Shown: positions 32,899 to 50,016 of the stretch, piece by piece | How the letters are laid out: every line of letters begins with the position of its first letter | Position numbering within the stretch: position 1 is the stretch's first letter | Virus record (IMG/VR): IMGVR_UViG_3300034069_002177 | Coordinates: 32,001 to 96,000 of that record | DNA from: a virus | Taxonomy: Duplodnaviria; Caudoviricetes | Direction: 5' to 3' (one strand) | Length of the DNA stretch: 64,000 nt | Notes under the pieces: model-generated | Told to the model about the DNA's origin: nothing | Database searches by the model: none | What the model saw: the letters and a program-made list of their open reading frames with translations, nothing else | Translations under genes and position numbers: made by a program

Positions 32899-32971
<73 letters not shown>

Positions 32972-34380: not shown

Positions 34381-34386
34381 AAACAT

Positions 34387-34461: not shown

Positions 34462-34471
34462 CAAGCAATTT

Positions 34472-34689
34472 GAAGGAGGTTAGCTTAGAAGTAGCAATCC
34501 TTTAAAGAGTGACGAGCGGCAATAAGCGTGATGGTGATAGCCGCACCCGATGCCTGAGTGAGAGTAAAGCTCAGGGGTTGCTAGAATAAGAACAAAGTCG
34601 AAATCCATCAGGAGTAGACGGAGTGAAGCGGGCGGTCCCTGCGTTCTGGATATACAAGGGTCAGAGTCTTTGGTGTAGTAACACACTTC
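34472..34689 (+). ncRNA. structured ncRNA containing a 23S rRNA H43/L11-site-like segment (possibly GOLLD-related)
   Basis: GGAGGTTAGCTTAGAAGTAGCAATCCTTTAAAGAGTG closely resembles the 23S rRNA 1055-1091 consensus; GAAG/CTTC closing pairing. Confidence 0.6.
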
Positions 34690-34844
34690 TTTTTGCCTAA
34701 TGTTGTGGTATGAATTCCGACGACAAAACCTCGGATGGCAACTGAGTTCTAGACTCAGAGCAGTGATTCGAACACTGCACCACGACCCAACTTTACTGGT
34801 GTCAGTCCCAGTAAAAGGTCGCCGTAACCACTCGGTGACCATCT

Positions 34845-34918
34845 TCCCCGCTAGCACAATTGGCAGTTGCATCTGGTTCTGGACCAGAAGGTTCTAGGTT
34901 CGACTCCTAGGTGGGGAG
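34845..34918 (+). tRNA. tRNA-Gln(CTG)
   Basis: Cloverleaf, loop TTCTGGA. Confidence 0.9.
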
Positions 34919-34954
34919 CAAAGGTCAATAATGACCCTCATCAGCAAATTTCAT

Positions 34955-35026
34955 TCCCCGATGGTGTAATTGGTAGCACGACTGGTTCTGGTCCAGTTAG
35001 TCTTGGTTCGAGTCCAGGTTGGGGAG
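34955..35026 (+). tRNA. tRNA-Gln(CTG)
   Basis: Cloverleaf, loop TTCTGGT. Confidence 0.92.
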
Positions 35027-35101
35027 CGGGAGTGGTAGAAATTACCGCTTGTATCAACTTGCATACAGCAGTCAGATGTGCAAGAATCTAGACAGTAGTA
35101 A

Positions 35102-35172
35102 TCCCCTATAGTGTAATGGCAGCACGAGAGCCTTTGGAGCTTTTTGTTTTGGTTCGAATCCAGATGGGGGAA
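35102..35172 (+). tRNA. tRNA-Gln(TTG)
   Basis: Cloverleaf, loop CTTTGGA. Confidence 0.9.
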
Positions 35173-35245
35173 CAAACGCGAAAGCGTCAAGCATTCCAGA
35201 ACGGTGACTACAACTCGCGCCGCTCCACGTTAGCATTCTGGATGC

Positions 35246-35317
<72 letters not shown>

Positions 35318-35421
35318 CAAGACACGTTCTCTACACCGAGGCGTCTTAGATACATCAAACAGCAGTGTGTAGTCAGGTTAGCTGGAATATGCAAGTTGCT
35401 CTATCAACTCAAACTGGGTAT

Positions 35422-35505
35422 GCGCACGTGGCGGAAATGGCAGACGCGCTAGCTTGAGGTGCTAGTGTTCGAAAGGACGTGAGGGTTCAAGTCCCTCCGC
35501 GCGCA
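35422..35505 (+). tRNA. tRNA-Leu(GAG)
   Basis: Class II, loop TTGAGGT. Confidence 0.92.
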
Positions 35506-35513
35506 CACATGAT

Positions 35514-35543
35514 TTGACAACATCGGTTTCGTTGGTGTACAGT
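35514..35543 (+). promoter_or_regulatory. SigA-type promoter
   Basis: TTGACA-N18-TACAGT. Confidence 0.65.
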
Positions 35544-35573
35544 TATGGAACAAGACAACAGAGAAAAAGATAT

Positions 35574-35655
35574 GCCCCTGTGGCGGAATTGGCAGACGCG
35601 CTCGACTCAAAATCGAGTTCTTCACGGAGTATCGGTTCAAGTCCGATTAGGGGTA
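35574..35655 (+). tRNA. tRNA-Leu(CAA)
   Basis: Class II, loop CTCAAAA. Confidence 0.92.
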
Positions 35656-35699
35656 CAGGTTGTAGGCTGAAAATAACCAGCATAGTCAGAAGCCTATAT

Positions 35700-35773
35700 G
35701 CTCTCGTAGCCCAATCGGCAGAGGCGGTTGACTTAAAATCAATACAGTGTGGGTTCAAGTCCCACCGAGAGTA
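35700..35773 (+). tRNA. tRNA-Leu(TAA), short variable arm (actinobacterial type)
   Basis: Loop CTTAAAA; D arm TAGCCCAATCGGCAGAGGC. Confidence 0.9.
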
Positions 35774-35816
35774 CGCAACACAAGCAATAGAACAAATCCC
35801 ATTAATTAACACACCA

Positions 35817-35889
35817 CGGGGTGTGGCGCAGTTGGTAGCGCGCCCGTTTTGGGGGCGGGAGGTCGCAAGTTCGAATCTTGTCACCCCGA
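35817..35889 (+). tRNA. tRNA-Pro(TGG)
   Basis: C1-G72, loop TTTGGGG. Confidence 0.92.
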
Positions 35890-35942
35890 CGTAACAATGC
35901 ATTACACTAACAAGTAACGCAAGCAACAAAAGCAACACGTAT

Positions 35943-36015
35943 TCCTCGATAGCTCAATTGGCAGAGCATCGCACTGTTAATGCGACGGTTCTTGGTTCGA
36001 GTCCAAGTCGGGGAG
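35943..36015 (+). tRNA. tRNA-Asn(GTT)
   Basis: Cloverleaf, loop CTGTTAA. Confidence 0.93.
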
Positions 36016-36175
36016 CTAGGCGGTAGGGTCGCCTCTACACGTCGATTACGACAAACATCATGCAACAGTGCGTAGCACGCGCTTTCGCCCAATGGGCGGA
36101 CGACCGCCTCTACTAGCCGCATGGTCATAAAGTCGAAATCATTAGTACGGTGCATCCGCGCCTACCGCCCATGTT

Positions 36176-36342
36176 TTCCTTGAAGCACACTGGCAGTGCG
36201 CGCCTACATAGTAGGTCTTAAGAGATGGAGGTTCGAATCCTCCCAGCCGCCCTCGTGACGGCTGTAGTTCAATTCGTAGATTGGTAGAACAGACCGACAT
36301 AGCCGGTAACAAAGAATGTGGGTTCAAATCCCACCAAGGAAT
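36176..36342 (+). ncRNA. double cloverleaf with cross-paired (swapped) acceptor strands
   Basis: TTCCTTG(36176-82)/CAAGGAA(36335-41) and CAGCCG(36244-49)/CGGCTG(36259-64); two D-like arms, two ACATAG loops, two canonical T arms. Confidence 0.75.
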
Positions 36343-36524
36343 CGAAACAACATCTAGCAGCATGGTCAGGAAGATGACTTGGATGTTGTTGTATCGAGGT
36401 ATGAATGAACCCGCGTAGCGAACCATTCCCATCTTCACCTATTCTTTCCTCGTAAGAGGCGGTGTTTCCTAAATCCCTCGGGATGGACGGACTCAGGGCT
36501 TTCCGTAAAGTTTCGTCCACCAAA

Positions 36525-36913
36525 GGGGATGACTTGGATTCGACTGATTGATACAGGCGAAAAGAAGCGTGCCGTGGGTTGTCTGGCGACTACGTAAATT
36601 ACACCAGGCAAAAAGAAATGCAAACGCATCTCGCAACGACTTCGCACTCGCAGCCTAACCGCTACGAGGCTTAATGGAGTCTGTCTCAGCTTCCAATGCA
36701 GAATGATTCACGGCAGGAACTAGGCATCAGCAAAGAGGAATCCGATGCGTCACCTAACTACTGGGTGGCAAGCAGCGTAATCATGGTAGATAGACGATAA
36801 CGAGCCGGTGTCCATACCAACTCGTTGCAGTCGATAACCGCCCCAAATGGACTACGCACGTAGAAGGTTTCGGTTTATCAAGCAACACGCGGGTTCGATT
36901 CCCGCCATCTCCA
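36525..36913 (+). ncRNA. ssrA: one-piece tmRNA; tag (A)ANASRNDFALAA at 36620-36658
   Basis: 5' GGGGATGACTTGGATTCGAC, 3' GCGGGTTCGATTCCCGCCATCTCCA, G3:U70, ALAA-stop tag. Confidence 0.95.
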
Positions 36914-37160
36914 CGACCACTCACGAGAAGTACCGGCTCGATACCGGCATGATCCACCATATGGGTCATCTGCATGGCAACAGACTACGTGGGAGCACAT
37001 ATTTAGGTGAGAGTCCTTAGTCCAGACCGGGAGGGTATGACCGGGAGAGGGTGAAAGCCCCTAGGTGCCGCCTAACGTGGACGGCACCGCACAAACTTAC
37101 AAGTACGAGTTGACAGAAGCCATTTCTGCCTGTCATACTGAATGAACAGCAACACAATAT

Positions 37161-37249
37161 GGAGTGGTCGCATAGTCCGGCTTAGTGCAGCAGTCTTGAA
37201 AACTGCCGTGGCGTTAAAACCACCGTGGGTTCAAATCCCACCCGCTCCG
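37161..37249 (+). tRNA. tRNA-Ser(TGA)
   Basis: Class II, loop CTTGAAA. Confidence 0.92.
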
Positions 37250-37296
37250 CGAAGGTTATAGGGTAGACATACCCGTTCCCTTTCACAATCAAAAGA

Positions 37297-37453
37297 TGGC
37301 GTGTGGCGCAATTTGGCTGACGCAGTGGACTAGTACCTAACCCCTACGACTGGTGAGTTGTAATGGCATGGACGGAATCCACCGGAAATAGGGAGGCATT
37401 GGAAACGATGTCCCACCCGAGGTTCCTTGCAGGTTCGAGTCCTGTCACGTTGT
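37297..37453 (+). ncRNA. expanded tRNA-like element (48-nt anticodon insertion, long variable region)
   Basis: TGGCGTG/CACGTTG acceptor, TGGCGCAATTTGGC D arm, GTGGA/TCCAC stem, GCAGG-TTCGAGT-CCTGT T arm. Confidence 0.65.
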
Positions 37454-37469
37454 CTTCGATTGTGCCTTC

Positions 37470-37542
37470 GGGTTTTTAGCTCATCTGGTAGAGCGCTGCT
37501 TTTGCAAGGCAGAGGTGAGGGGTTCAAGTCCCCTAAGATCCA
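37470..37542 (+). tRNA. tRNA-Ala(TGC)
   Basis: G3:U70, loop TTTGCAA. Confidence 0.92.
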
Positions 37543-37670
37543 CGAGTCAAAGAAACTTCGGTTTTGATTTGACTTAGATAGAAATTGTCTGGTAGTGTTG
37601 TGATAACAACAACGGAACTTGAAAAGACAACAGTGGAAATACAAGCTCAACGAAATTGGTTGAGCGAAAT

Positions 37671-37757
37671 GGAGCCGTCGCATAGTGGCCTAGTGCACCA
37701 CCCTGCTAAGGTGGAGTACCCGCAAGGGTACCGTGGGTTCAAATCCCACCGGCTCCG
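37671..37757 (+). tRNA. tRNA-Ser(GCT)
   Basis: Class II, loop CTGCTAA. Confidence 0.93.
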
Positions 37758-37951
37758 CAAAGACCGAATGAGTAACCCCTGGTACGGGTAAAAATTCAGT
37801 CCTCGCTCAAATCAGCATCATCGATGCGGCTTCCAGCCGTGAAGTTGGAAAGTACATCGAGGGTGGTACCACTGAAACGAGCAATTGCCTTGGATGACTC
37901 AATAGGGGTGCGAAATGACATAAGTCATGAGCTTCACTGAATAGGCATTAT

Positions 37952-38038
37952 GGAACCGTCGCATAGTGGTCTAGTGCACCACCTTGGAAAGGTGGCATAC
38001 CTGCAAGGGTATCGAGAGTTCGAATCTCTCCGGTTCCG
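37952..38038 (+). tRNA. tRNA-Ser(GGA)
   Basis: Class II, loop TTGGAAA. Confidence 0.93.
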
Positions 38039-38237
38039 CGTTGTCGTCTTCCAAGCGACAATCCCGACAAACCTGGGTGAAGGGTTGTTCAATGATGGCT
38101 AAGAACTAAAACCGAGCCATTGTGTATTTTCTTCATTCTTGCACTGACTAGAATGTTGCGGTTGATCCCGTTAGGAAATCTACGGAACGGCTTCGGTTGT
38201 TTCGGGTCGTTAGGGTTTGATCACCCTTTCGACGCAT

Positions 38238-38311
38238 GCCTCGCTAGCTCAATTGGCAGTAGCATCTGACTCTTAATCAGAGGGTTCCCGGTTCAAGTCC
38301 GGGGCGAGGCA
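38238..38311 (+). tRNA. tRNA-Lys(CTT)
   Basis: Cloverleaf, loop CTCTTAA. Confidence 0.92.
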
Positions 38312-38745
38312 CAAAGTATCTTCGGATACTTGCAGTAAGACAAGGCTTCCATGTACGCCGCAAGGTATGTAGAGAAATCGCTTCGCATGGGTGAGTCTTA
38401 CTGAGAACGTAGAGATGCGATTAGAGGCGTTCTTTCCACACTTGTACACCGGATCGGTCCTAGGAGCCTATCGTCACAGACGGCACATCCGAGGGAGGGG
38501 TTGATGAACCCTTGTACGTATACATCGTCGCTTCAAGCACAGCCTCTGTGAGGAACTGTTGCCAGTTCGGACGTAACCCGAACGCTCGTAAGTTCACAGC
38601 CTATGTAGAGGGGCTGGTGGGGCGCAATCCCATTGCGGTTATGAAAAGCCGAAAACTTGCAGCATTTTCGTCATGTGCGGGGTTCAATTCCCCAAGGGCG
38701 TCGGCTCAAACCCGGCGCGGTTGGATTCATTACCGTGGCGAATAT

Positions 38746-38819
38746 GGTGGGCGTAGCTCAGTTGGTAGAGCGCTGGCTTGTGGAGCCGGATGTCGCGGGT
38801 TCGAGCCCCGTCGTTCACC
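38746..38819 (+). tRNA. tRNA-His(GTG)
   Basis: G-1:C73, loop TTGTGGA. Confidence 0.93.
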
Positions 38820-38994
38820 CGAATTACGTTCTGATTCAGATACCAAAAAGGAATCAGAAAGTCATCGAACAGCTTGGTATCTCTGTTGTGGATGGTGTGA
38901 AGTCGTATCGAGTCATCTTTTGCGTCGGCAGGCGTTGATGACAGGTGATGCATTCCGAAAGGAACTGCCCGTCGATAGCTTCACATAAGTTTTT

Positions 38995-39085
38995 GGAGGG
39001 GTCGCATAGTCCGGCTTAGTGCAGCAGTTTCGAAAGCTGCCGTAGGTGTCACATCCTACCGTGGGTTCAAATCCCACCCTCTCCG
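38995..39085 (+). tRNA. tRNA-Ser(CGA)
   Basis: Class II, loop TTCGAAA. Confidence 0.92.
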
Positions 39086-39195
39086 CAATAGAGTTCAAGC
39101 AGCCCTGATTACCAGGAAGCATAAGATGACACTTGGACCTAGATTTCTTCATCGACTAGCAGATTCGTTCTGACTTGTCAGATGAAGTAAGTAAT

Positions 39196-39275
39196 GCCCG
39201 ATTGGTGGAATTGGCAGACACGCTGGCTTTAGGTGCCAGTGCTTAGGCGTGAGAGTTCAAGTCTCTCATCGGGTA
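39196..39275 (+). tRNA. tRNA-Leu(TAG)
   Basis: Class II, loop TTTAGGT. Confidence 0.92.
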
Positions 39276-39421
39276 CGCACGGATTCACAAGACGACTGGT
39301 GCAATGGTCGTTGCATAGTGCCTTGTTGTGATGATGTTGCCGGTTGGATCGGTATTGCACAATTGCCCCCCAACAAATCAGGTCCACCGAACGTCGTGAT
39401 GACAGTGCGGTGGGCTTCTGA

Positions 39422-39495
39422 CGCTCAGTAGCCAAGATGGTAAGGCGCACCGCTCATAACGGTGTTACGCGGTGGTTCGAGTCCACCCTGAGCGA
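39422..39495 (+). tRNA. tRNA(CAT), elongator Met or Ile2
   Basis: Paired C1-G72, loop CTCATAA. Confidence 0.88.
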
Positions 39496-39732
39496 CAAAG
39501 GTGATGAGGAAGGTCTTGACTACACTCATTATCTAACGGGACGACCCGGCAAGGTCGCTTTCGGTTCTCAGGTTTATCCCGTACACCCCTGAGACAGCAG
39601 TGTGAAACCTTTTGCCGAGGGTTGCTGCATTTTGAGACAGAAGAATGCATGTGATGTTATTGCCTCCGCGCTGACCTCTCCATGTTGGATATCTGTCGGA
39701 TCCTAAGTTGGTCACACTCGGCTTAGTTGTCT

Positions 39733-39806
39733 GGCGCGTTAGCACAATTGGTAGTTGCAGCACCCTTTCACGGTGCAGGTTACGGGTTCGAGCCCCGTAC
39801 GCGTCA
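39733..39806 (+). tRNA. tRNA-Glu(TTC)
   Basis: Cloverleaf, loop CTTTCAC. Confidence 0.9.
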
Positions 39807-39822
39807 CGTTTCTTGTTGGTAC

Positions 39823-39852
39823 TTGACAAGATAGGTAAGTCACCTGTAAGGT
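39823..39852 (+). promoter_or_regulatory. SigA-type promoter
   Basis: TTGACA-N18-TAAGGT. Confidence 0.7.
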
Positions 39853-39867
39853 GATAGTAGTAAATAT

Positions 39868-39941
39868 GGCGCTGTAGCACAATTGGCAGTTGCATCGGTT
39901 TCTCAGACCGAAGGTTGCGGGTTCAAGTCCCGTCAGCGTCA
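39868..39941 (+). tRNA. tRNA-Glu(CTC)
   Basis: Cloverleaf, loop TTCTCAG. Confidence 0.88.
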
Positions 39942-40070
39942 CGATAACCCAAACGCTCCGAGGAATGTCGGAATCACTGGCGGGTTAGATAACTAACGAG
40001 AGACACTACGTAGCCTTCCTCAGGAGGTCTTTCGTCCAGAGTCGCCTACTGAGGCGGAAGCGACTACCAT

Positions 40071-40144
40071 GCCATCTTAGCTCAGTTGGAGAGAGCGACT
40101 GTTTGAAAAGCAGTAGGTCACCGGTTCGGCTCCGGTAGTTGGCA
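40071..40144 (+). tRNA. tRNA-Phe(GAA)
   Basis: Cloverleaf, loop TTGAAAA. Confidence 0.88.
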
Positions 40145-40171
40145 CACTGGTTCCTTTTAGGACCACGTTAT

Positions 40172-40246
40172 ACCCTTGTAGTTCAGTAGAGATTAGGGCG
40201 CTTGTCGATGAGACAGGAGGCGGTGGTTCAAGTCCACCTGGGGGTA
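40172..40246 (+). ncRNA. atypical tRNA-like element (loop CGATGAG)
   Basis: ACCCTTG/TGGGGGT acceptor, CTTGT/ACAGG stem, canonical T arm; G33. Confidence 0.65.
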
Positions 40247-40363
40247 CGGTTGAGAGACTTTGCAAGGTCTCGATGCAAGTTCGGCGGGAATTGAACCCGT
40301 GCGGGGCGCAAGCTACGGTTGTCGTATGAGGAAGCTTACTCAGATAGTCTTCGCGTAGCACAT

Positions 40364-40436
<73 letters not shown>

Positions 40437-40517
40437 CAAACGGTGAGAGCCACTGGTTCTTAGCCGTCTTATCTCTACATCAACATCCAATCTATAGATA
40501 CGGCGTTGCTGTAGGGT

Positions 40518-40591
40518 TCCCTGTTGCGACTAATGGAATATGTCGTCTTCACAAGAACGAAGAGATGCCAGTTCGACTCTGGTACGGGGAG
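40518..40591 (+). ncRNA. atypical tRNA-like element with 8-nt anticodon loop
   Basis: TCCCTGT/ACGGGGA acceptor, CGAC/GTCG D stem, TCTTC-ACAAGAAC-GAAGA, GCCAG-TTCGACT-CTGGT. Confidence 0.7.
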
Positions 40592-40772
40592 CTTAGTGGT
40601 ACCGGCACAGGGTGTACAACCATCGTCGGTGCGGTCGGGAGTGATATCCCCTGACCAGTCGTGCTTGGAAGGCTGCGTAATGTAGTACGGGGTTCGATCC
40701 CCGTCATGAGCCACTTATACTTCTTCAAGGGTTGACCGGAATCAAGATGCCGTGATACCATTGAAGGCATAA

Positions 40773-40847
40773 TGCGGGGTAGGGCAGTTCGGTAGCCCGC
40801 CAGGCTCATAATCTGGAAGTCGCGTGGTTCAAATCCCGCCCCCGCAA
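40773..40847 (+). tRNA. tRNA-Met(CAT), initiator-like body
   Basis: TGCGGGG acceptor, loop CTCATAA; bulged T stem; lacks the three G-C anticodon pairs. Confidence 0.8.
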
Positions 40848-41069
40848 CGTTACAACGAAGATACAAACATCGAAGGGTTCTTGTATCGGGATTACTAGAA
40901 AGCGCAACCTGCGTGTAACTGGGTTGTGTTAGGTGGGGACCGTAAGGTTCGTGCCGACACCGGCAAGAGAACGAGACCTAGCGTGAGAGCGAGAGGTCAG
41001 GTGAATTGGTACTTCGTACCGCGAGAAGCCCGAGCTTAGATGCACACGTTCCACTTGCCGGTTTTGTTT

Positions 41070-41142
41070 GGGTCGTTAGCTCATCTGGTAGAGCGCTGCT
41101 TTTGCAAGGCAGAGGTGAGGGGTTCAAGTCCCCTACGATCCA
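41070..41142 (+). tRNA. tRNA-Ala(TGC)
   Basis: Near-identical to 37470..37542; G3:U70. Confidence 0.93.
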
Positions 41143-41242
41143 CGCTTCCTCTCCAATCACCATTCTCGGCTCATTACCTTGGATGGCGGAGAGCCCCCAC
41201 TTCGATACCGGTTACGGGGTGGGGGATAGAAGCAACCAATAT

Positions 41243-41316
41243 AGGGGTATAGCTCAGATGGTTAGAGCGCTTCGCTGATAACGAAGAGGTCTTCGGTTCA
41301 ATTCCGAATATCCCTA
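41243..41316 (+). tRNA. tRNA-Ile(GAT)
   Basis: Cloverleaf, loop CTGATAA. Confidence 0.92.
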
Positions 41317-41346
41317 CTGCTCATTGTCACTTCTAGAATCTGGCGG

Positions 41347-41376
41347 TTGACAAAGAGTTACGACACACGATAAAGT
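41347..41376 (+). promoter_or_regulatory. SigA-type promoter
   Basis: TTGACA-N18-TAAAGT. Confidence 0.7.
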
Positions 41377-41424
41377 GGTGGTCGCGGTAAACAGTCCGCA
41401 CAGGCTCTCAACATTGAGGGTTCT

Positions 41425-41499
41425 GGCGCATTAGCACAATTGGTTAGTTGCATCGCCCTTTCACGGCGAAGGTTACGGGTTCAAGTCCCGTATGCGTCA
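41425..41499 (+). tRNA. tRNA-Glu(TTC)
   Basis: Cloverleaf, loop CTTTCAC. Confidence 0.9.
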
Positions 41500-41500
41500 C

Positions 41501-41577
<77 letters not shown>

Positions 41578-41602
41578 CTTCCAAACCAATATCAGTTTGG
41601 AC

Positions 41603-41632
41603 TTGACATCTACACAAAGTTGTTGCTAAGGT
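41603..41632 (+). promoter_or_regulatory. SigA-type promoter
   Basis: TTGACA-N18-TAAGGT. Confidence 0.7.
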
Positions 41633-41701
41633 TGTTCTATAAGCAAGAAAGAACAACACTTGGTAACTCCATAGAGAAAGAAATGCCGCGCAAGCGGTTT
41701 T

Positions 41702-41774
41702 GGCTGTATAGCTCAGGGGTGAGAGCACTTCGCTGATAACGAAGGGGTCGGTGGTTCGATTCCACCTACAGCCA
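41702..41774 (+). tRNA. tRNA-Ile(GAT)
   Basis: Cloverleaf, loop CTGATAA. Confidence 0.92.
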
Positions 41775-41973
41775 CTCGGAACACAACAACTCGCATACCT
41801 GCCGGACCAATCATCTGAGCAGCGCGGGGCGGAATGTTCGTCTCGAAAGAGAAATCGGCGGTATCTAGCGGTCCTTGGTTGCAAGGGTGCCGCAAGATGG
41901 ATGAGTACCGAGCGTTAACCTCATCAGATGATACGAAGCGAGATTGATTACCAAGCTTCTAAGTCGTCAACAT

Positions 41974-42046
41974 GCCCCTTTAGCTCAGTTGGTAGAGCGC
42001 TACGTTTACACCGTAGATGTCATCGGTTCGAGCCCGGTAGGGGGCA
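41974..42046 (+). tRNA. tRNA-Val(TAC)
   Basis: Cloverleaf, loop TTTACAC. Confidence 0.92.
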
Positions 42047-42252
42047 CTGCACCAAGCGGTTATGCATGACTGACTATGGTGCTTGACACATACCAAGTGT
42101 CTAGGCGGGGTTCCTGAATGTGACCTAGTTGTCGGTTGGCTCCAAACCGTCCCTTATGGACTACGAGGTTACCGCGTGTCCCGTTTAGCGTTCTTGCGTG
42201 AAGAGCGTTGTGGGTGTCCGTCTCAGTGGTACGAGACGTAATCCCACAGAAT

Positions 42253-42325
42253 GCGCCCGTAGCTCAGGGGATAGAGCGGTTGACTACGGATCAACAGGTC
42301 GGGGGTTCGATTCCCTTCGGGCGCA
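42253..42325 (+). tRNA. tRNA-Arg(ACG)
   Basis: Cloverleaf, loop CTACGGA. Confidence 0.93.
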
Positions 42326-42340
42326 CGCAACACAAAGATT

Positions 42341-42581
42341 TTCAACCAACTGGACTGTCGCGGGCGAAAGCTTGAGGAAAGTCCGGGCACTTGACCAACT
42401 ACCGTGTGGTAGATGAACTCCGCGTTCATCGCTCAAGAACCACTAAGCCCAACCTAAAAAGCAGGGTGCAGGATGTGTGCAACGCCAAACAGTCTGAGGG
42501 AGTTGGTCTCCTGTGAAAGACGGGTAGGCGGCTGAGACAGATGACAGTCTAAAACAGAACCCGGCTTACGGGTTGGTTGAA
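42341..42581 (+). ncRNA. rnpB: compact RNase P RNA (~240 nt, no P18, reduced S-domain)
   Basis: P1 TTCAACCAAC/GTTGGTTGAA, P2 GACTGTC/GACAGTC, CR-I GAGGAAAGTCCGGGC, GGGTAGGCGGCT, CR-V AAACAGAACCCGGCTTA. Confidence 0.92.
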
Positions 42582-42586
42582 TTAAT

Positions 42587-42670
42587 GCCCGCATGGCGAA
42601 ATTGGCAGCCGCGTTGCGTTCAGAGCGCAATGACCGAATGGTCGTCCGAGTTCAAGTCTCGGTGTGGGCA
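42587..42670 (+). tRNA. tRNA-Leu(CAG)
   Basis: Class II, loop TTCAGAG. Confidence 0.9.
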
Positions 42671-42761
42671 CTGCTGACCTAGGTCAGCCACTAATGAAAG
42701 GCTACACGAAATGATGGACTCCACCTAACCCTCCTTTGTTGACTATACAAAGGAGGTGAAA

Positions 42762-42941
42762 ATGAGAAAATTCACATACACAGACACCCGCGACTGGAAG
42801 GTCGCTGATGTCGATGGCAAGGCTATGACCTTGCTCGTGACGGATGCAAAGGGCAACAAAAGGAACGTCGAAAAGTTCGACGGCTTCCGCTCTGCATCCA
42901 GAGCAGCCAAGAAGCTTGGTGGTTTCGCCGTTAGGGCGTAA
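42762..42941 (+). CDS. 59-aa basic protein with hairpin-sequestered RBS
   Basis: AAAGGAGGTG RBS; genome-typical codons. Confidence 0.75.
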   Translation: MRKFTYTDTRDWKVADVDGKAMTLLVTDAKGNKRNVEKFDGFRSASRAAKKLGGFAVRA

Positions 42942-43057
42942 CTAGGCTTTCAGATTTCTCCGGTGTGCGGAGAATGAAATACCCAGTCGTGGACCTTGCA
43001 GAAACGAAGCGGCTGGCGAGTGGTAGGCATGTACTGCACTGTCCTACCACTCAAAAT

Positions 43058-43130
43058 GGCTCTGTAGCTCAGTTGGTAGAGCGTTCGACTGAAAATCGAA
43101 AGGTCACCGGATCGATGCCGGTCGGAGCCA
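43058..43130 (+). tRNA. tRNA-Phe(GAA)
   Basis: Loop CTGAAAA; actinobacterial ATCGATG T loop. Confidence 0.93.
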
Positions 43131-43280
43131 CGACCGATTCCATACAGTTTTTGCGGACTGCGATGGATCTCACTACTAGCCACGGGTACTTCGTTGCGTG
43201 CTGAGTAGGACATGAGGATTGGTGCCTCATCAATGAATAGACTGGTTGGGATACCGCAAAATTTCCAACTGGTCGCACTA

Positions 43281-43354
43281 GCCTCGCTAGCTCAATATGG
43301 CAGAGCATCAGACTTTTAATCTGCGGGTTCTCGGTTCAAGTCCGAGGCGGGGCA
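43281..43354 (+). tRNA. tRNA-Lys(TTT)
   Basis: Cloverleaf, loop CTTTTAA. Confidence 0.92.
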
Positions 43355-43379
43355 CACATCATTGGGATTCCAATGACTA

Positions 43380-43463
43380 GATAGTAGTGATGTAATTGGC
43401 AGCACGTCCGCCTTGTGTACAGAGGGCTAACGGAAGGAATCGACTCGAAATCGTTCTACTATC
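43380..43463 (+). ncRNA. tRNA-like element with extended anticodon hairpin
   Basis: GATAGTAG/CTACTATC 8-bp acceptor, Gln-type D arm TGTAATTGGCAGCAC, TCCG/CGGA enclosing a further hairpin, CTCGAAA T loop. Confidence 0.6.
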
Positions 43464-43590
43464 GAAAACCGTGGCGTATGGTTTATTACGCAGTCACCGA
43501 AACATGGCGTAGGCGAAGCGCCCTAGAAGTTGGATTAGGTGAAAGGTGTCGGAAGCTCCCTCAGCAGGAGCCTAGTCTTGGTCACCATAT

Positions 43591-43663
43591 TCCTCTATAG
43601 CTCAATTGGCAGAGCAGTCGGCTGTTAACCGACAGGTTCGTGGTTCGAATCCACGTGGGGGAG
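43591..43663 (+). tRNA. tRNA-Asn(GTT)
   Basis: Cloverleaf, loop CTGTTAA. Confidence 0.93.
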
Positions 43664-43786
43664 CAATGCGAGTATCCGGTACGCAAGGTTGCAACGCTCG
43701 CAGAAGTCCTAACTTTCCCACAGCAGTCCGTGAGGGAAGTCAAGCAACGGAAATGAGAAATCATAGGGTTGGCGGTTAGGCAACAT

Positions 43787-43858
43787 GGCGATGTGGTGTG
43801 AGTGGTTAGCCGTTTCTCTGCAAAAGAAAATATGCCGGTTCGATTCCGGTCGTCGCCT
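43787..43858 (+). tRNA. tRNA-Cys(GCA)
   Basis: Loop CTGCAAA, U73. Confidence 0.88.
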
Positions 43859-43914
43859 CAATGCTCGATTTGACTTTCACCGGTCAGTCGTTCTACCATG
43901 TTCTATATGAACAT

Positions 43915-43989
43915 GGGGTGATAGCCAAGCTGGTTAAGGCACCGAACTCATAATTCGACGATTCGTGGGTTCAAGTCCCACTCACCCCA
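43915..43989 (+). tRNA. tRNA(CAT), Ile2 or elongator Met
   Basis: GGGGTGA/TCACCCC acceptor, loop CTCATAA. Confidence 0.88.
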
Positions 43990-44163
43990 CTCAACTTCAT
44001 CACTACTCCGATGAGGTAGGGTTCCGATAAGCACCATGTGTGCTAAGATTGGGGCTCGCAGAACCACCCGGTTCTGTTGTGTGCTGGATTCCGTGTTGTG
44101 CGCACGACGTGGAATTCATCGGTCGAAGTCCGACGTATGTAACCGACGAAACAGGTGCTACAT

Positions 44164-44236
44164 GCCCGTATAGCTCAGTTGGTAGAGCGCCAGCATGACT
44201 CGCTGGATGTCGGGGGTTCAAATCCCTCTACGAGCA
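44164..44236 (+). tRNA. tRNA-Val(GAC)
   Basis: Loop ATGACTC (pyrimidine at 37); one acceptor mismatch. Confidence 0.8.
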
Positions 44237-44257
44237 CTGCTTCTTGACACGAAGCTA

Positions 44258-44500
44258 TTCCTGAGAAATCGGGATGTTCCGCCCTGACCTTCGCATTGTG
44301 AAGTTCCTTACCTCGGTTTGGATGAACCACTGCGACCCTTGGAGCCACCAAGTCCCTACTCCGGTAGGGATGAACCACCACGACCTTCGCGTCCACAATA
44401 TCCTCGCCTCGGCTTGGATGATCCTCCCCAACCTTCAGATTCATCACTTCCTCGCTCCGGCTTGGATGAACCGCGATGACCTCTACCGTGGGTACACTTT
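44258..44500 (-). repeat. five tandem 48-bp repeats encoding a 16-aa (K/R)V-x3-HP-x-R unit on the minus strand
   Basis: GGATG at 44272, 44320, 44368, 44416, 44464 (exact 48-nt period); synonymous variation in the minus frame. Confidence 0.8.
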
Positions 44501-44528
44501 CGTTTCGACGGGAATTATGGAAATGGAC

Positions 44529-44558
44529 TTGACAGAGTATGGTCTGGTACTGTAAAGT
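44529..44558 (+). promoter_or_regulatory. SigA-type promoter
   Basis: TTGACA-N18-TAAAGT. Confidence 0.7.
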
Positions 44559-44626
44559 GGTAAACGTCTTGTGAGAGCAAGACTTCGGAACTTCACAACA
44601 CAATAGCGTTTAGTAAGAAAGATTTT

Positions 44627-44700
44627 GCTTCTGTAGCTCAGATGGTTAGAGCGCCGCCCTGTCACGGCGGAGGTCGCCGGTTCAAGTCCGGTCAGGGGCG
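44627..44700 (+). tRNA. tRNA-Asp(GTC)
   Basis: Body identical to 33719 copy, different acceptor. Confidence 0.92.
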
Positions 44701-44947
44701 CTATCAAAGGAACCGCGTTAGCGGGTTGCCTGCGATACAGCAAGACACCAGATACCGTCAAATATCTGGTACCCACACTTCTACCGTCGATGCGGTAGGT
44801 TCCGTTGACACGGAAGGATCGTTTCAAGTGAAGGTCTTGTACTTTGTTGGGCGTCGTCCTCCGGGACTGGCGCAGCCGATGGGTTCGGTTCCGTGACTCA
44901 TCTCCCTTTTATGCCGAGTGGTTGCAAACGCGAGGAAACGGAAATAT

Positions 44948-45020
44948 GGGGTCTTAACTCAGTTGGTAGAGTGCCTGCTTTGCAAGCAGGATGTCAGGAG
45001 TTCGATTCTCCTAGACTCCA
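44948..45020 (+). tRNA. tRNA-Ala(TGC)
   Basis: G3:U70, loop TTTGCAA. Confidence 0.92.
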
Positions 45021-45160
45021 CGTTGGTAGACGAAAGTCTTACCTTGGTAGATGAACACCTACCCTGCTCCAGTAATGGACAGGCTCCGAAGCAGAGATTC
45101 GGAATCCTACGTAAGACTGCTAGCGTCGCACATAGGAATATCGAGTCAAGTGTTCAACAT

Positions 45161-45231
45161 GGATTTTAGCTCAGTTGGTAGAGCACCTGCTTTCAAGCAG
45201 AATTTCGGGAGTTCGATTCCCCCATAATCCG
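45161..45231 (+). pseudogene. degenerate tRNA (Ala-like, 6-nt loop TTTCAA)
   Basis: Canonical D arm, CTGC/GCAG stem, mismatched T stem and shortened acceptor. Confidence 0.6.
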
Positions 45232-45375
45232 CGAACAAGAAGCTGTTGAAGTTTAGGGATTAACTACCCGAGTGCAGATACGTGTGTGTACTGTTTATAC
45301 CCTAGTCGCCGGTTAGGATGATGACTGCTTGGTAGTTCTTGCAGTGATTGTTCATGAATACGAGCTAGGCTCTGT

Positions 45376-45446
45376 GGGGATGTAGCTTAATGGTAAAGCC
45401 TTAGTCTTCCAAACTAATGACGCGGGTTCGATTCCCGTCATCCCCT
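45376..45446 (+). tRNA. tRNA-Gly(TCC)
   Basis: Loop CTTCCAA, U73. Confidence 0.93.
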
Positions 45447-45709
45447 CTGTGGCATCATCGAAATTACGGTGAAGGCTTCCTAACGCCTCTGTGTGAATCG
45501 CAGTGAAAAGTTAGGACTCTGCCGGAGTAGAGTGGTTGCATAGACTAAACCGGAAACAGGGCTTGCGGACCTGGGCGTGATACGGGATTCGGCTATCACA
45601 GACCTCTTTATGAGGCATATGGATGAAAGTTCCACAGTGAAGCATTTAGGAAATTCGAAGAATCCAAACGCGTTGGATGAAATCGTATAGACTAAGTGCA
45701 TCACGACAT

Positions 45710-45781
45710 GCGGATGTGGCGCAGTGGTAGCGCATAACCTTGCCAAGGTTAGGGTCGCGAGTTCGAATCTCGTCATCCGCT
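45710..45781 (+). tRNA. tRNA-Gly(GCC)
   Basis: Loop TTGCCAA. Confidence 0.94.
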
Positions 45782-45949
45782 CGTAAGCAGCATTTGACTG
45801 CTAGGGCTTCTAGGATATCCATTGGGTATCCTTTTAGTCGAGATCCCGTCCAACCGCAAGGTTGGCGTAAGCGGTCGTTCAAATACACCTTCTCTAACTC
45901 CGGTTGGCATCGAAAGATGCGTTCTTGGGAAGCGTGTTAAACCGGATAT

Positions 45950-46021
45950 GCGGTCATAGCCTACGGGTATGGCAACTTGGCTTCCAGCCAAGAGTTGATG
46001 GTTCAAGTCCATCTGACCGCT
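45950..46021 (+). tRNA. tRNA-Gly(TCC)
   Basis: Loop CTTCCAG. Confidence 0.88.
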
Positions 46022-46344
46022 CAAAGCCATCCAGAAGGCGGTATAAGCGAGTAACTAACGCCGATACCATCCGATGCTGGCTCATCCTTAGAATGGAACG
46101 TGGCGCTTGTGAGACTGTAGTGGTCAAGCACGTGTTACCGGAAATTCTCAGGCTCTGATTCTCGACTAGTAATCGGGAAGCGGGTTTGCTTCACCCGCCC
46201 TAGCTGCGACGAGTAGTGGCGAAGGAATAAGCACCTCAGCAATGCGAGGCTAAGCGTTGCCACTATTGGGTCACTGTTTACTAGACAAACCCTTTAGGAT
46301 TCGGTAAGCTAGAGACTAAGAAGCTTCCTAGCTTCCGAATACAT

Positions 46345-46439
46345 GGGACTGTAGCTCAAAAGTCACCCTCAAGGTGGCGGGTAGAGCAAGGAGCGGCGCG
46401 CGTTCCAGAAGGTTATCGGTTCGATCCCGATCAGTTCCA
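46345..46439 (+). ncRNA. Ala-identity tRNA-like element with hairpin inserted in the D loop and no anticodon loop consensus
   Basis: GGGACTG/CAGTTCC (G3:U70), A73; GTCACC/GGTGGC inside D loop; GGAGCG-GCGCG-CGTTCC; canonical T arm. Confidence 0.7.
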
Positions 46440-46481
46440 CGGTCTTCTAGTCGTCCTTCGGGATGGCTAGAACTCCACCAT

Positions 46482-46556
46482 GCGAAAGTAACTCAGCGGT
46501 AGAGTTCCTCGTTGCCAACGAGGTTGTCGCGGGTTCGATCCCCGTCTTTCGCTCCA
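46482..46556 (+). tRNA. tRNA-Gly(GCC), CCA encoded
   Basis: Loop TTGCCAA. Confidence 0.93.
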
Positions 46557-46641
46557 AGGTAGGAATTTGTCAAACGCAGCCCGGTGCCCTGACGACATCG
46601 ATGCTGTAGGGGTTCCTGCCTGTAACTTATTTTCATGATTT

Positions 46642-46714
46642 GCCCTCGTAGCTCAGGGGATAGAGCAGGAGCCTTCTAATCTCTTGGTCGCAGGTTCGAA
46701 TCCTGCCGAGGGCA
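46642..46714 (+). tRNA. tRNA-Arg(TCT)
   Basis: Loop CTTCTAA. Confidence 0.92.
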
Positions 46715-46815
46715 CAACGGTCGTCAATGGGCGTACACGACCGGGTTTACTTGGCGTCCAAAACAGGCGGCTTCCTATGAGTGTATGGAGGCTGATCCTC
46801 GACTCGACACTCACT

Positions 46816-46888
46816 GCGTTTGTAGCTCAGTGGATAGAGCAGTTGACTACGGATCAACAGGTCGGGGGTTCGAATCCCTCCAGGCGCA
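46816..46888 (+). tRNA. tRNA-Arg(ACG)
   Basis: Loop CTACGGA. Confidence 0.93.
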
Positions 46889-46947
46889 CAGATTTGCATG
46901 GTAGCTGTCTAGCTGCTATGCTTTTCACGAGGGTAAAACCTTGAAAT

Positions 46948-47020
46948 GCCGACTTGGCGCAATTGGTAGCGCAACTGTCTTGTAAACAGTAGGTTGCGGG
47001 TTCAAGTCCCGCAGTTGGCT
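46948..47020 (+). tRNA. tRNA-Thr(TGT)
   Basis: Loop CTTGTAA. Confidence 0.93.
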
Positions 47021-47036
47021 CTCCGAAGGGATAATT

Positions 47037-47399
47037 ATGTACGACTTGTCATTCTCTGAATTTGACGACGAACCTCGCGCCCTCCCCATCGATGTAGCGC
47101 GTAATCGCATCGAGCCGTTGTTCCCGAATTTGAAGTTCACAAGTGCTGGCGGGTCAGTTCCCTTCCAAGCCGAGGGCTACTACATGGGTATCGCGGACTT
47201 TTACTTTCGGTTCCGACATGACTCGGCTAGTCTCACGATTGGTCGTCCTGGTCGGCACACCCCCGAAAATGATTTCGTCATCTACAAAGATGACGTGACT
47301 GGCGAGGATTACGCGGGAACGCTCGACGATGATGAATTTGTAGCGTTGTTCACGGAACTCATGGAGCGTATGCTTGCAGAGAAACCACTTCCTCGCTAA
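47037..47399 (+). CDS. hypothetical protein inside tRNA array
   Basis: 120 aa, RBS GAAGGG; PFQAEG...FYFRFRHD motif. Confidence 0.7.
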   Translation: MYDLSFSEFDDEPRALPIDVARNRIEPLFPNLKFTSAGGSVPFQAEGYYMGIADFYFRFRHDSASLTIGRPGRHTPENDFVIYKDDVTGEDYAGTLDDDEFVALFTELMERMLAEKPLPR

Positions 47400-47448
47400 G
47401 AAATAGACTGGTGATGGTCAGGTCAGAAATGAAGCAGCCATCATCTTT

Positions 47449-47521
47449 GCCCTTGTAGTTCAGCGGATAGAGCGTCATCTTCCGAAGGTGAATGTCGCTG
47501 GTTCGAATCCAGTCAAGGGCA
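47449..47521 (+). tRNA. tRNA-Arg(CCG)
   Basis: Loop TTCCGAA. Confidence 0.9.
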
Positions 47522-47619
47522 CAAGCAACACGAAGTGGCGATGGCAGGGTAAGTTGCAACGACTGTCACGCTCCCTATGCATGGGGTTGTGTTGTGAGGT
47601 GAAGGGAAATCACCAAATT

Positions 47620-47691
47620 CGTACTGGTCGTTCAAGTCAGGACTGCTTGTTAAAAGTGAGATGGGGGTATCGAATCCTTCCTAGTACGCCA
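47620..47691 (+). pseudogene. degenerate tRNA-like element ending in CCA
   Basis: CGTACTGG/CTAGTACG acceptor plus CCA, GTTC/GGAC D stem, irregular anticodon and T arms. Confidence 0.5.
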
Positions 47692-47757
47692 AACTTCTTG
47701 TAACACGACCGGGTTCAGCCCAGTCGTGTGATATAGCCAGACACCGATGGTGTTTAT

Positions 47758-47829
47758 GCCACTTTAGCTCAGGGGTAGAGCAAACGCTTCGTAAGCGTTA
47801 GGTCGTCAGTTCAAATCTGACAAGTGGCT
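47758..47829 (+). tRNA. tRNA-Thr(CGT)
   Basis: Loop TTCGTAA. Confidence 0.93.
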
Positions 47830-48089
47830 CGGAATCGGGAACAAGGTCTCTCGGTAACGGACAGGTACAAAACGAGAACCCAGTGCACATGGACTCGCAC
47901 AAAATCCTGTTACCGTTTCGGTGTCCGTCTTCTTACGTTTTCGGGCACCGAACATTCTTCGAGGTTCAGCACTCGACGTATTTCATCTCAGGATACGGTA
48001 CGATACCAAAGGCTGGTCGGAGGTACACCGAAGGTAATCTGTTAGTGCAGATGATCAACCATGCACAGCGCGGAGTGATTCGCGTTTGT

Positions 48090-48161
<72 letters not shown>

Positions 48162-48197
48162 CGTAAAGACTGCTACGGTAGTTATTCACGAAAATAT

Positions 48198-48273
48198 GGG
48201 TTCTTAGCTCAGTTGGTAGAGCATCACGCTGGCAGCGTGAGGGTCAGGGGTTCGAATCCCCTAGGATCCACCA
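48198..48273 (+). tRNA. tRNA-Ala(GGC), CCA encoded
   Basis: G3:U70, loop CTGGCAG. Confidence 0.92.
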
Positions 48274-48302
48274 TATAGACACCTTGACGAAACGGACCAA
48301 AG

Positions 48303-48776
48303 TTGACCGAGCTAGTAATCGCTCCAATGAATGTCGAAGATATTCAGTCCGTTATCGACCATGTAACCAATGTATCCCTAGCTTCGTCGCATCTCGACCA
48401 CCCCAATATCGGTGCATGGCTTGAAGGTGAATACAATCCTGCTGATGTACTCGCAAAGCTTGATTCGAGCATCTGTCTCATTGTGAGAGATAACGAGCAC
48501 ATTGTCGGTACCGGATTCATCGATACGACAACTGGCTACATTTCGGGTGTCTATGTCTCCAATAAGGGACACGGTACTGGTCGTTTGATTGTCGATAGGT
48601 TGCTTGAAGAAGCAGCAGCAGAGGCTGGTACGAAACACTTCACTGCGAGTGTTCATCCTGACTCGAAAGCCATGCAGCACATTCTTTCAACGTCTGGTTT
48701 CACGGCAACGCATGTGGACCCTCACGTTGTTTACTATGTTGGTACCGACTTCATGATTTGGGAAAAGTCGGTATAG
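48303..48776 (+). CDS. GNAT-family acetyltransferase
   Basis: ISGVYVS..GHGTGRLIV acetyl-CoA loop; ..HIL..SGF motif. Confidence 0.8.
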   Translation: MTELVIAPMNVEDIQSVIDHVTNVSLASSHLDHPNIGAWLEGEYNPADVLAKLDSSICLIVRDNEHIVGTGFIDTTTGYISGVYVSNKGHGTGRLIVDRLLEEAAAEAGTKHFTASVHPDSKAMQHILSTSGFTATHVDPHVVYYVGTDFMIWEKSV

Positions 48777-48782
48777 CAACAC

Positions 48783-48854
48783 GCCTCGTTAGTTCAGCGG
48801 AAGAATGCCTCTTTCCTAAAGAGTTGGTCGCTGGTTCGAATCCAGTACGGGGCA
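48783..48854 (+). tRNA. tRNA-Arg(CCT)
   Basis: Loop TTCCTAA. Confidence 0.9.
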
Positions 48855-49209
48855 CTGGGAAAACACCAACAGATTCGATTAGTCATCGAGGAACTAAGTT
48901 GGTGAGGGTGGTCGTTCACCGTGAAAAGAACGATGTCTGGTGATGTAGACGAGGTACCTAGCCTGAATCACAAGCGGATGAGACGGTTAGCTGGTTGGTG
49001 GACGCTCGATAAGGGTGGTTTCCGTACTCGCTGATTTGTGGGGTATAGATTCCGAATACTGCGACCCATCGTGGAAGACAACAAGCGGCTTGACTGGTCG
49101 CCCAAGTGACAAGTGTGGTGGAAATCCACTAGTAATCAAGAGCGTGGTACAGGGATCATAACCCTGCCTCCGTGAAGGTTTTAAGCCGGAGCGGCTTGGT
49201 TGCGATTTA

Positions 49210-49283
49210 CGGAGTATGGGAAAATTTGGCAATCCGCGCCGTTCGGGACGGCGAGAATGAGGGTTCAAATCCCTCTACTCCGA
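49210..49283 (+). tRNA. tRNA-Pro(CGG)
   Basis: C1-G72, loop TTCGGGA. Confidence 0.9.
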
Positions 49284-49377
49284 CATGGGGCGAGTGAGTC
49301 CGCGAAACCTTGGTGTTGACAACACAAGTAGACGTGGGCGCGGTCGCGTGTTTTCTCGACACCCTGTATCGTCAAAT

Positions 49378-49634
49378 GCAGTAGGGTTGAGGAACAGAAA
49401 TGCGGGCAGCAATGTGCCGCTACCGTAGGTCGAGACTACGGCGCTCCACCAAACTTTTGACACAGATTGGTCAACCCCGGCGCTTTAGGGGCTGAGAACG
49501 GCTCACAGAGCCAGTGGTCGTGGGCGAAGCGTGAAGGCATCCTGGGTAAGTCCTTCCGGCAAGCTACCAACGCGAATTCTGAGGTTCATGTCTTGGAAGT
49601 GCTGGGGACGTGGGTTCGATTCCCACCGACTGCA
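49378..49634 (+). ncRNA. second swapped-acceptor double tRNA/tmRNA-like element with internal Ala-type CCA end
   Basis: GCAGTAG/CGACTGC outer stem; internal CGTAG-GTCGAGA-CTACG T arm plus GCGCTCC-A-CCA, then GGGGCTG; terminal GTGGG-TTCGATT-CCCAC. Confidence 0.65.
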
Positions 49635-49660
49635 CAACGTCAGCAATGCGCTGACCGTAT

Positions 49661-49734
49661 GGTGTTCGTAGCTCAATTGGCAGAGCGGCAGGTCGTGAAC
49701 CTGTTCGTTGCGGGTTCAAGTCCCGTCGTCCACC
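49661..49734 (+). tRNA. tRNA-His(GTG), atypical (C33, two acceptor mismatches)
   Basis: G-1:C73, loop TCGTGAA. Confidence 0.72.
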
Positions 49735-49766
49735 TGAAACGATACCCTTATCGTCAAAAGGAATAA

Positions 49767-49840
49767 CAGGATGTAGCGCAGTTTGGTAGCGCGCCAGTTC
49801 GGGGAACTGGAGGTCGCGGGTTCAAACCCCGCCATCCTGA
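49767..49840 (+). tRNA. tRNA-Pro(GGG), C33
   Basis: C1-G72, loop TCGGGGA. Confidence 0.82.
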
Positions 49841-50016
49841 CACTTATCGACATCCGTTAACGAATGACACCGTACTGTTTTATGGTATAAACACCCCAAT
49901 AGAGGGGTGGTTGTTCGATAGCGGGTACATTCCACATAAAAATGGCTTGACAGATGAGACAATTTCATACACGGCAAAATGGTTGCTGTATCTACATCCG
50001 AAAGCTCATCCCGACC

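Follow-up and report, generated by a model that had tools for sequence, protein, structure and literature searches.

The question raised by this locus is what fills the gap between a tRNA-Arg(acg) and a tRNA-Leu(cag) gene within an unusually crowded array, and what such a spacer might do for the DNA that carries it. The stretch analyzed here (the window, 64,000 nucleotides in length) is part of a 202.7-kb record and holds an island of 17 kb in which 64 tRNA genes and a tmRNA gene all lie on the plus strand. An earlier note on this DNA had read the gap as a miniature RNase P RNA (RPR) placed between two tRNAs, and both parts of that reading are borne out: the tRNA genes flank it on the 5' and 3' sides, and P1, P2, the GAAA-capped P3, CR-I, L15 and CR-V, which the note had recognized as catalytic-domain signatures within about 240 nt, are each in place (Table 1). 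Read by eye from P1 to P1, the bacterial type-A RPR occupies window positions 42341-42581 on the plus strand (241 nt). The cmscan that the note had called for, run locally on 42040-42600, matched RNaseP_bact_a (RF00010) at 42342-42584 with 84.9 bits (E 2.6e-26), though below the gathering score of that model, which is 100 bits. RF00010 is the best Rfam match of the window RNA, and model positions 1-367 are covered at both ends, with about 140 positions of the specificity (S) domain and 24 positions of P18 deleted. It is because most of the S-domain and P18 are missing that the score falls short of the gathering score, and for this reason a default Rfam scan overlooked the RNA. The window RNA is the sole RNase P RNA match in the whole record. 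The minimum free energy fold of the single window sequence gained only modestly over shuffled sequences (z = -2.0) and was therefore left out of the evidence. Together with the selection on the fold described below, the RF00010 match supports a reduced type-A RPR on a mobile element within a tRNA array, as had been proposed, and the window RNA is a real RPR of this kind, with strong selection acting on the structure of its catalytic domain.

Table 1. Positions of the RPR elements and flanking tRNA genes in the window, followed by the copies in cultured phages (positions in the accessions given; R1 is the covariance model described in the text).
Feature	Position	Strand	Remark
tRNA-Arg(acg)	42253-42326	+	ends 14 nt before P1
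P1, 10 bp	42341-42350 with 42572-42581	+	9/9 counted pairs (42342-42350 with 42572-42580) show double-sided changes in 14 copies; outermost pair 42341/42581 by eye
P2, 8 bp	42352-42359 with 42543-42550	+	double-sided changes in 6/8 pairs
P3 hairpin, 5 bp, GAAA loop	42361-42374	+	4 counted pairs, 100% of cells paired, 3/4 covary; innermost fifth pair by eye
CR-I GAGGAAAGUCCGGGC (J3/4 AGGAA and P4 5' strand)	42374-42388	+	bulged U at 42382
P5, 5' strand	42387-42390 with 42477-42480	+	100% paired; 2/4 pairs covary
P6 pseudoknot	J5/7 strand 42394-42399 with P17 loop 42502-42507	+	double-sided changes in 5/6 pairs
S-domain remnant	42402-42472	+	P7 with hairpins A and B
P7, CC/GG	42402-3 with 42471-2	+	some copies add U-A, G-C or C-G pairs
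Hairpin A, GUGG/CCAC stem	42406-42443	+	clade-specific stem-loop inserted at 42412-42430
Hairpin B, 4 bp	42447-42467	+	2 covarying pairs; conserved A-rich 13-nt loop
J5/15 AA, P15 (42483-6 with 42527-30), P16, P17, L15	42481-42530	+	P15 4/4 and P16 3/3 pairs covary
L15 CGGGUAGG	from 42521	+	loop CGGGUA holds the CCA-binding GGU; letters C.GGUA invariant
Strand joining P15 to P2, usual place of P18	42532-42542, 11 nt	+	24 Rfam model positions deleted
CR-V ACAGAACCCGGCUUA (J2/4 ACAGAA and P4 3' strand)	42554-42568	+	from Rfam alignment and pair count
tRNA-Leu(cag)	42587-42671	+	starts 5 nt after P1
Copy in Microbacterium phage A3Wally	MZ150783.1 93855-94065 (L179:2501-2711)		R1 126 bits
Copy in Microbacterium phage Zooman	OK040793.1 89341-89551 (L180:1201-1411)		R1 116 bits
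Copy in Microbacterium phage Big4	ON637770.1 91782-91992		blastn match, no R1 score

Of the catalytic domain only P18 is missing: P1-P5, P6, P15-P17 with the GGU, J5/15, J15/2 and J2/4 are all present. A P15-P16-P17 arm with GGU in L15, together with the P6 pseudoknot, marks type-A RPRs as against type B; the window RNA has both, along with a P4 helix bearing the bulged U between CR-I (AGGAAAGUCC) and CR-V (ACAGAAnCCGGCUUA) and a P1-P2-P3 framework with P5, all of which covary. Of the further type-A features, the S-domain of P7-P14 with CR-II and CR-III and the P18 hairpin are absent, and the score lies under 100 bits. The earlier note was right that P18 is gone, its place being taken by a short single strand (P18 is absent in 13 of 14 copies of the family described below), and right that the S-domain has shrunk, but the change goes beyond shortening. 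P8-P14 are replaced by a small junction closed by P7 and carrying two hairpins, which together form a conserved module of about 70 nt. At the tip of hairpin A the inserted stem-loops are clade-specific and self-complementary. The invariance of hairpin A is a product of the search, since its sequence was the pattern by which members were found. In a metatranscriptome contig of 780 nt (run X20, depth 22) the RPR is matched on either side of 42389-42450, but 541 other letters take the place of these 62 nt; in this relative the variable tip of hairpin A has therefore received a large insert.

That the window RNA is not a solitary curiosity was established by searching the viral collection with a CR-I motif and then the viral, genome and metagenome collections with the hairpin pattern CCGUGUGGU...CCACUAAGC. 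The resulting family of mini-RPRs comprises 14 distinct copies of 210-264 nt on viral and metagenome contigs, with a median pairwise identity of 67% and a minimum of 55%; the copies in phages A3Wally and Zooman come in addition to these. Most matches of the first pattern over the viral collection were due to chance, as were the matches of the hairpin-A pattern in the genome contig collection, where 54 of 54 were without RNase P signatures. Our covariance model R1, seeded from five members, scores the members at 79-285 bits (285 for the window RNA), and all other RPRs from 93 sources, whether ordinary or reduced in some other way, at no more than 63 bits. Over 151 Microbacteriaceae genomes R1 found only ordinary RPRs of 326-344 nt, at up to 52 bits, and no mini-RPR. 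When 12 other members were scanned with Rfam (L164 was not scanned), none reached the gathering score, and standard annotation thus misses these RNAs. The best Rfam match of nine members besides the window RNA was RF00010, at 50.7-82.2 bits, while L159 had no RNase P match listed. Two further members, L169:367-576 and L100:8501-8743, gave their highest Rfam scores with the archaeal RNase P model (80.1 and 48.6 bits, threshold 84), a preference that probably reflects the tolerance of this model for RNAs with no P18 and little S-domain.

Whether the fold is maintained was judged from pair counts, with a structure of 59 pairs, on A6, in which Infernal had aligned the 14 copies; for the nested helices, this alignment had itself been fitted to the model. 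Three MAFFT alignments (A1-A3), in which P1-P3 were misaligned, had been set aside. Standard pairs occupy 96.1% of cells, as compared with 73% in shuffles and 33-42% in slid-partner controls, and double-sided changes occur at 41 of 59 pairs, a number reached by 0 of 500 shuffles. The strongest covariation evidence comes from P4 and P6, as these lie outside the search model and their pairing is not imposed by it. In P4 all cells (100%) are paired, four of seven pairs change on both strands and the bulged U is invariant; the variants are AAG/CUU to AUC/GAU or ACC/GGU, and CCGG/CCGG to CCGC/GCGG, CGGG/CCCG or CCGA/UCGG. RNAalifold, run without our structure being supplied, recovers P1, P3, P4, P15-P17 and both hairpins A and B. 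Invariant or nearly so are AGGAA in J3/4, the bulged U of P4, AA in J5/15, GGU in L15 and ACAGAA in J2/4. The base identities of P4 are near-universal in other RPRs, and their drift here (AAG to AUC or ACC) could signal altered catalysis.

The position of the RNA bears on how its ends might be made. As tRNA-Leu(cag) begins only 5 nt beyond P1, the window RPR is in effect the 5' leader of that tRNA. Most mini-RPR copies lie within dense tRNA arrays, with a tRNA start 3-9 nt past P1 in 9 of 16 copies and an upstream tRNA end within 14 nt of P1 in 8 of 16. A scan for promoter and terminator consensus sequences gave nothing above shuffles, which is weak evidence. Where the spacing is this close, neither a promoter nor a terminator belonging to the RPR could fit, and the RPR is thus most likely cut from a co-transcript with the tRNAs, its 3' end being made by RNase P acting on the downstream tRNA. 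A parallel exists in RPM1 of yeast mitochondria, a strongly reduced RPR gene that is likewise flanked by tRNAs and is freed from a shared transcript by tRNA processing, the route of release proposed here for the mini-RPR. However, RPM1 is organellar and extremely AT-rich, has lost almost everything other than P1, P4 and P18, and depends on a protein dedicated to it. The RPR usually stands 3' of a tRNA-Arg (acg or ccg; in the window, L164, L076, L168, L179 and L180). The tRNA gene downstream of it is tRNA-Arg(cct) or, at three loci, tRNA-Leu(cag); these three are the window, L165 and L156, where the tRNA-Leu lies 615 nt farther on. This conserved synteny suggests that the RPR moves with part of the array. 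At two loci, L162:108-160 and L087:1130-1175 (minus), there is no tRNA 5' of the RPR, and a hairpin resembling a terminator partly coincides with hexamers of promoter type (TTGACA-17-TACAAT and TTGCCA-18-TAAAAT, found by eye) that end about 7 nt before P1; these RPRs would head a small RPR-tRNA unit. With regard to expression, a leaf-litter RNA-seq run contained one 184-nt contig identical to 42374-42557 and wholly intragenic, and a metatranscriptome from a different study held a relative at depth 22 that runs on into tRNA-Leu. These give a weak hint that mini-RPRs are expressed, as contigs from RNA libraries can stem from contaminating DNA.

The carriers are diverse. A blastn search with the window RNA against phage and plasmid collections returned nothing, whereas the L076 copy as query was 99.5% identical to a gap in phage A3Wally and 91% identical to the same gap in Zooman and Big4. 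In all three phages, each of which is cultured, tRNA-Arg(ccg) and tRNA-Arg(cct) border the copy, and the space between them carries no annotation; every mini-RPR copy is unannotated, even in curated phage genomes. The viral record holding L076 encodes a large terminase, and a terminase or an HK97 capsid protein is present in records with other reduced RPRs. The window replicon encodes a DnaE-type polymerase, a clamp loader, helicases, an FtsK-like translocase and a VirB4-like AAA_10 ATPase, of which the ATPase and the translocase lie outside the window at record positions 146395-149157 and 177617-180709. Pfam models for terminase, HK97 capsid and VirD4 (PF02534) found nothing in this record, which IMG/VR files as a virus. 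The only plasmid relatives of its AAA_10 ATPase are Curtobacterium megaplasmids of 546-567 kb, at 22% identity. This giant mobile element may be a phage or a conjugative element. The weak Curtobacterium ATPase matches and the Microbacterium phages point to Microbacteriaceae as hosts. No homologue of the window VirB4-like ATPase or DnaE was found on the other carriers, and the same RNA subtype therefore resides on unrelated replicons. RPRs of other kinds occur in tRNA arrays of viral contigs of 24-463 kb. Among these are a 205-nt RPR with P8, P9 and a CR-II-like sequence, seemingly without P15-P17 (L050:10595-10799); RPRs of about 270 nt (L044:41-310, 56.9 bits) and about 308 nt (L063:1748-2055, 64.4 bits), scored against an Rfam threshold of 100; and RPRs of about 320 nt at L012:4029-4347, L025:4461-4783 and L057:3889-4204, which like L050 were not scanned with Rfam.

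Compared with E. coli M1 RNA (rnpB) and RF00010, the mini-RPRs share the catalytic domain, with P1-P5, P6, P15-P17 with GGU, CR-I, CR-IV and CR-V. They differ from type-A RPRs in length (210-264 nt against about 330-400 nt), in the loss of P10-P14 (CR-II/III) and P18, in the covariation of P4 pairs, and in residing on phages and a giant mobile element, in tRNA arrays, with no rnpA found. The archaeal type T RPR of Thermoproteaceae also combines a normal catalytic domain with an S-domain reduced to P7-P9 and a P10 stub; it has a P2 of 3 bp and a shortened P15, is chromosomal, is the only RPR of its cell, works with archaeal proteins and is missed by standard Rfam models (PMC3579882). The designs are convergent, as both have a P7 junction with short hairpins and both escape the standard models. 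However, the mini-RPR has neither the 3-bp P2 and shortened P15 nor the Thermoproteaceae origin that define type T; its P2 has 8 bp and its P15 4 bp, its carriers are bacterial phages and mobile elements, and there is no sequence kinship beyond the universal core. A laboratory construct, the engineered E. coli catalytic-domain ribozyme Eco CP RPR, requires a P6-type pairing, is less efficient in vitro without the S-domain, and gains nothing from P18 when the S-domain, which holds P8, the docking partner of P18, is removed (Mao et al., 2018; PMC5839562). The same elements are kept and dropped in the mini-RPR (P6 retained, S-domain and P18 lost), although in the mini-RPR a conserved pair of hairpins stands where the S-domain was. 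RPRs of CPR bacteria, which are without P12, P13, P14 and P18, were likewise found only by sub-threshold searches; unlike the mini-RPRs, they are chromosomal, form the sole RPR of the cell and in many cases have no GGU in L15, a motif that does not vary among the mini-RPRs (Lui et al., 2021; PMC8172020).

RnpA (PF00825) was not found on eight records, namely that of the window, five other viral records (three with this subtype), A3Wally and Zooman. The earlier note had presumed that host RnpA is borrowed and had suggested a search for rnpA on the replicon; the negative result fits such borrowing but is no proof of it. The window element has a gene for a CCA-adding enzyme, as do three of the five other viral records. 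The window element also encodes RtcB and the tmRNA, and no SmpB was found in it. Among the 64 tRNA genes of the window (32899-49841), U(-1) is present in 79%, C74 in 98% and C75 in 5%, so that of the CCA end only the first C is encoded. The other mini-RPR loci (L156, L165, L164, L168 and L076; 109 genes) have C74 in 99% and C75 in 15%, and the full CCA is encoded in the viral arrays whose RPRs measure about 320 nt (L012, L025 and L057), a comparison that rests on a small sample of lineages that are not independent. U(-1) is present in 57-75% of tRNA genes in other viral arrays, so that its enrichment is not specific to mini-RPR arrays. It is the catalytic domain that contacts both U(-1) and C74, and these features fit a ribozyme that has lost its reader of the tRNA elbow.

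We consider it probable, from these sequence comparisons, that the window RNA works as a minimized RNase P ribozyme, relying on host RnpA to mature the tRNAs of the element itself; its catalysis, protein partner, processing route and benefit to the element are what we infer. This model proposes that the RPR, having no promoter or terminator of its own, would be transcribed together with the neighboring tRNAs, that its 5' end would arise from 3' processing of the upstream tRNA-Arg, and that RNase P would create its 3' end by cutting 5 nt farther on, where tRNA-Leu begins. The RNA would bind host RnpA and remove the 5' leaders of the 64 element pre-tRNAs and of the tmRNA, and may thereby secure tRNA maturation capacity while the array is expressed. 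The S-domain normally gives much of the affinity for pre-tRNA, and substrates would here be recognized through the catalytic domain, with U(-1) meeting the J5/15 adenosine and C74 the GGU of L15. Since the host possesses a complete RNase P in any case, a benefit to the element is an assumption.

Other explanations can be weighed against the same data. It is scarcely credible that the RNA is a decaying, functionless fragment of a captured host rnpB; the score below the Rfam threshold and the loss of about 40% of a normal RPR might be read in this way, but the covariation contradicts it, as the core helices are kept by compensatory changes across 14 diverged copies, the copies share the same deletions, and they reside on unrelated replicons, cultured phages included. 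An RNA that is intact and yet serves mainly as a sponge or regulator, titrating host RnpA so as to throttle or redirect host tRNA maturation, with catalysis secondary, would agree with the lack of rnpA on the carriers tested and with the loss of most of the substrate-binding S-domain. However, a sponge would have no need of the residues for chemistry and docking that are conserved (the bulged U of P4, GGU in L15, AA in J5/15 and P6), nor to lie among its presumed substrates, and we regard this role as unlikely.

The partner might instead be an unrecognized protein encoded by the element, or the RNA might act without protein, and many element proteins do match no family, while the base identities of P4 drift. 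Bacterial RPRs nevertheless need RnpA in vivo, as is generally known, and a common dedicated partner looks improbable on unrelated carriers, no homologue of the window element's VirB4-like ATPase or DnaE having been found on the others; we give this version very little weight. The loss of the elbow-measuring S-domain could also make the RNA a specialized processor of non-canonical RNAs from the island; two-bodied tRNA-like RNAs, tmRNA and structured spacers would be examples of RNAs on which the host enzyme performs badly. Ribozymes reduced to the catalytic domain do cleave simple hairpin substrates (PMC5839562), but the same subtype occurs in Microbacterium phages and on short contigs beside ordinary tRNAs or protein genes, which makes such specialization improbable. 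The suggestion of the earlier note that the trimmed S-domain serves atypical or swapped-acceptor RNAs finds no support for the same reason. Beyond the preferred reading of a functional ribozyme that works with host RnpA on the element's tRNAs, it is conceivable, if doubtful, that actinobacterial mobile elements and phages carry a co-adapted kit for tRNA maturation, composed of a minimal ribozyme that reads its substrates solely through the catalytic domain, tRNA genes of which almost all have U(-1) and C74 only, and a CCA-adding enzyme of their own, in which captured RnpA would favor the tRNAs of the element over those of the host. If this were true, RNase P would be a tool of translational takeover.

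RNase P RNA is regarded as a universal cellular and organellar ribozyme. In the searchable literature we found no description of an RNase P RNA borne by a virus or plasmid; neither of two papers on tRNA arrays in mycobacteria refers to such an RNA, and a further report covers only the chromosomal mycobacterial rnpB (PMC6582537). New here are the subtype with a two-hairpin S-domain remnant, its copies in cultured Microbacterium phages, a possibly conjugative carrier, and the link with tRNA genes that encode C74 only. At 210-264 nt the mini-RPRs are among the smallest bacterial-type RNase P RNAs, and they amount to a natural deletion experiment whose outcome agrees with engineered catalytic-domain ribozymes, with the addition of natural covariation inside P4, the core helix of catalysis. 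The GenBank records of A3Wally, Zooman and Big4 are open to re-annotation, and the copies in these cultured phages open to test the questions of what a phage gains from such an RNA, whether RnpA is hijacked, and how small an RNA can be and still serve RNase P in vivo.
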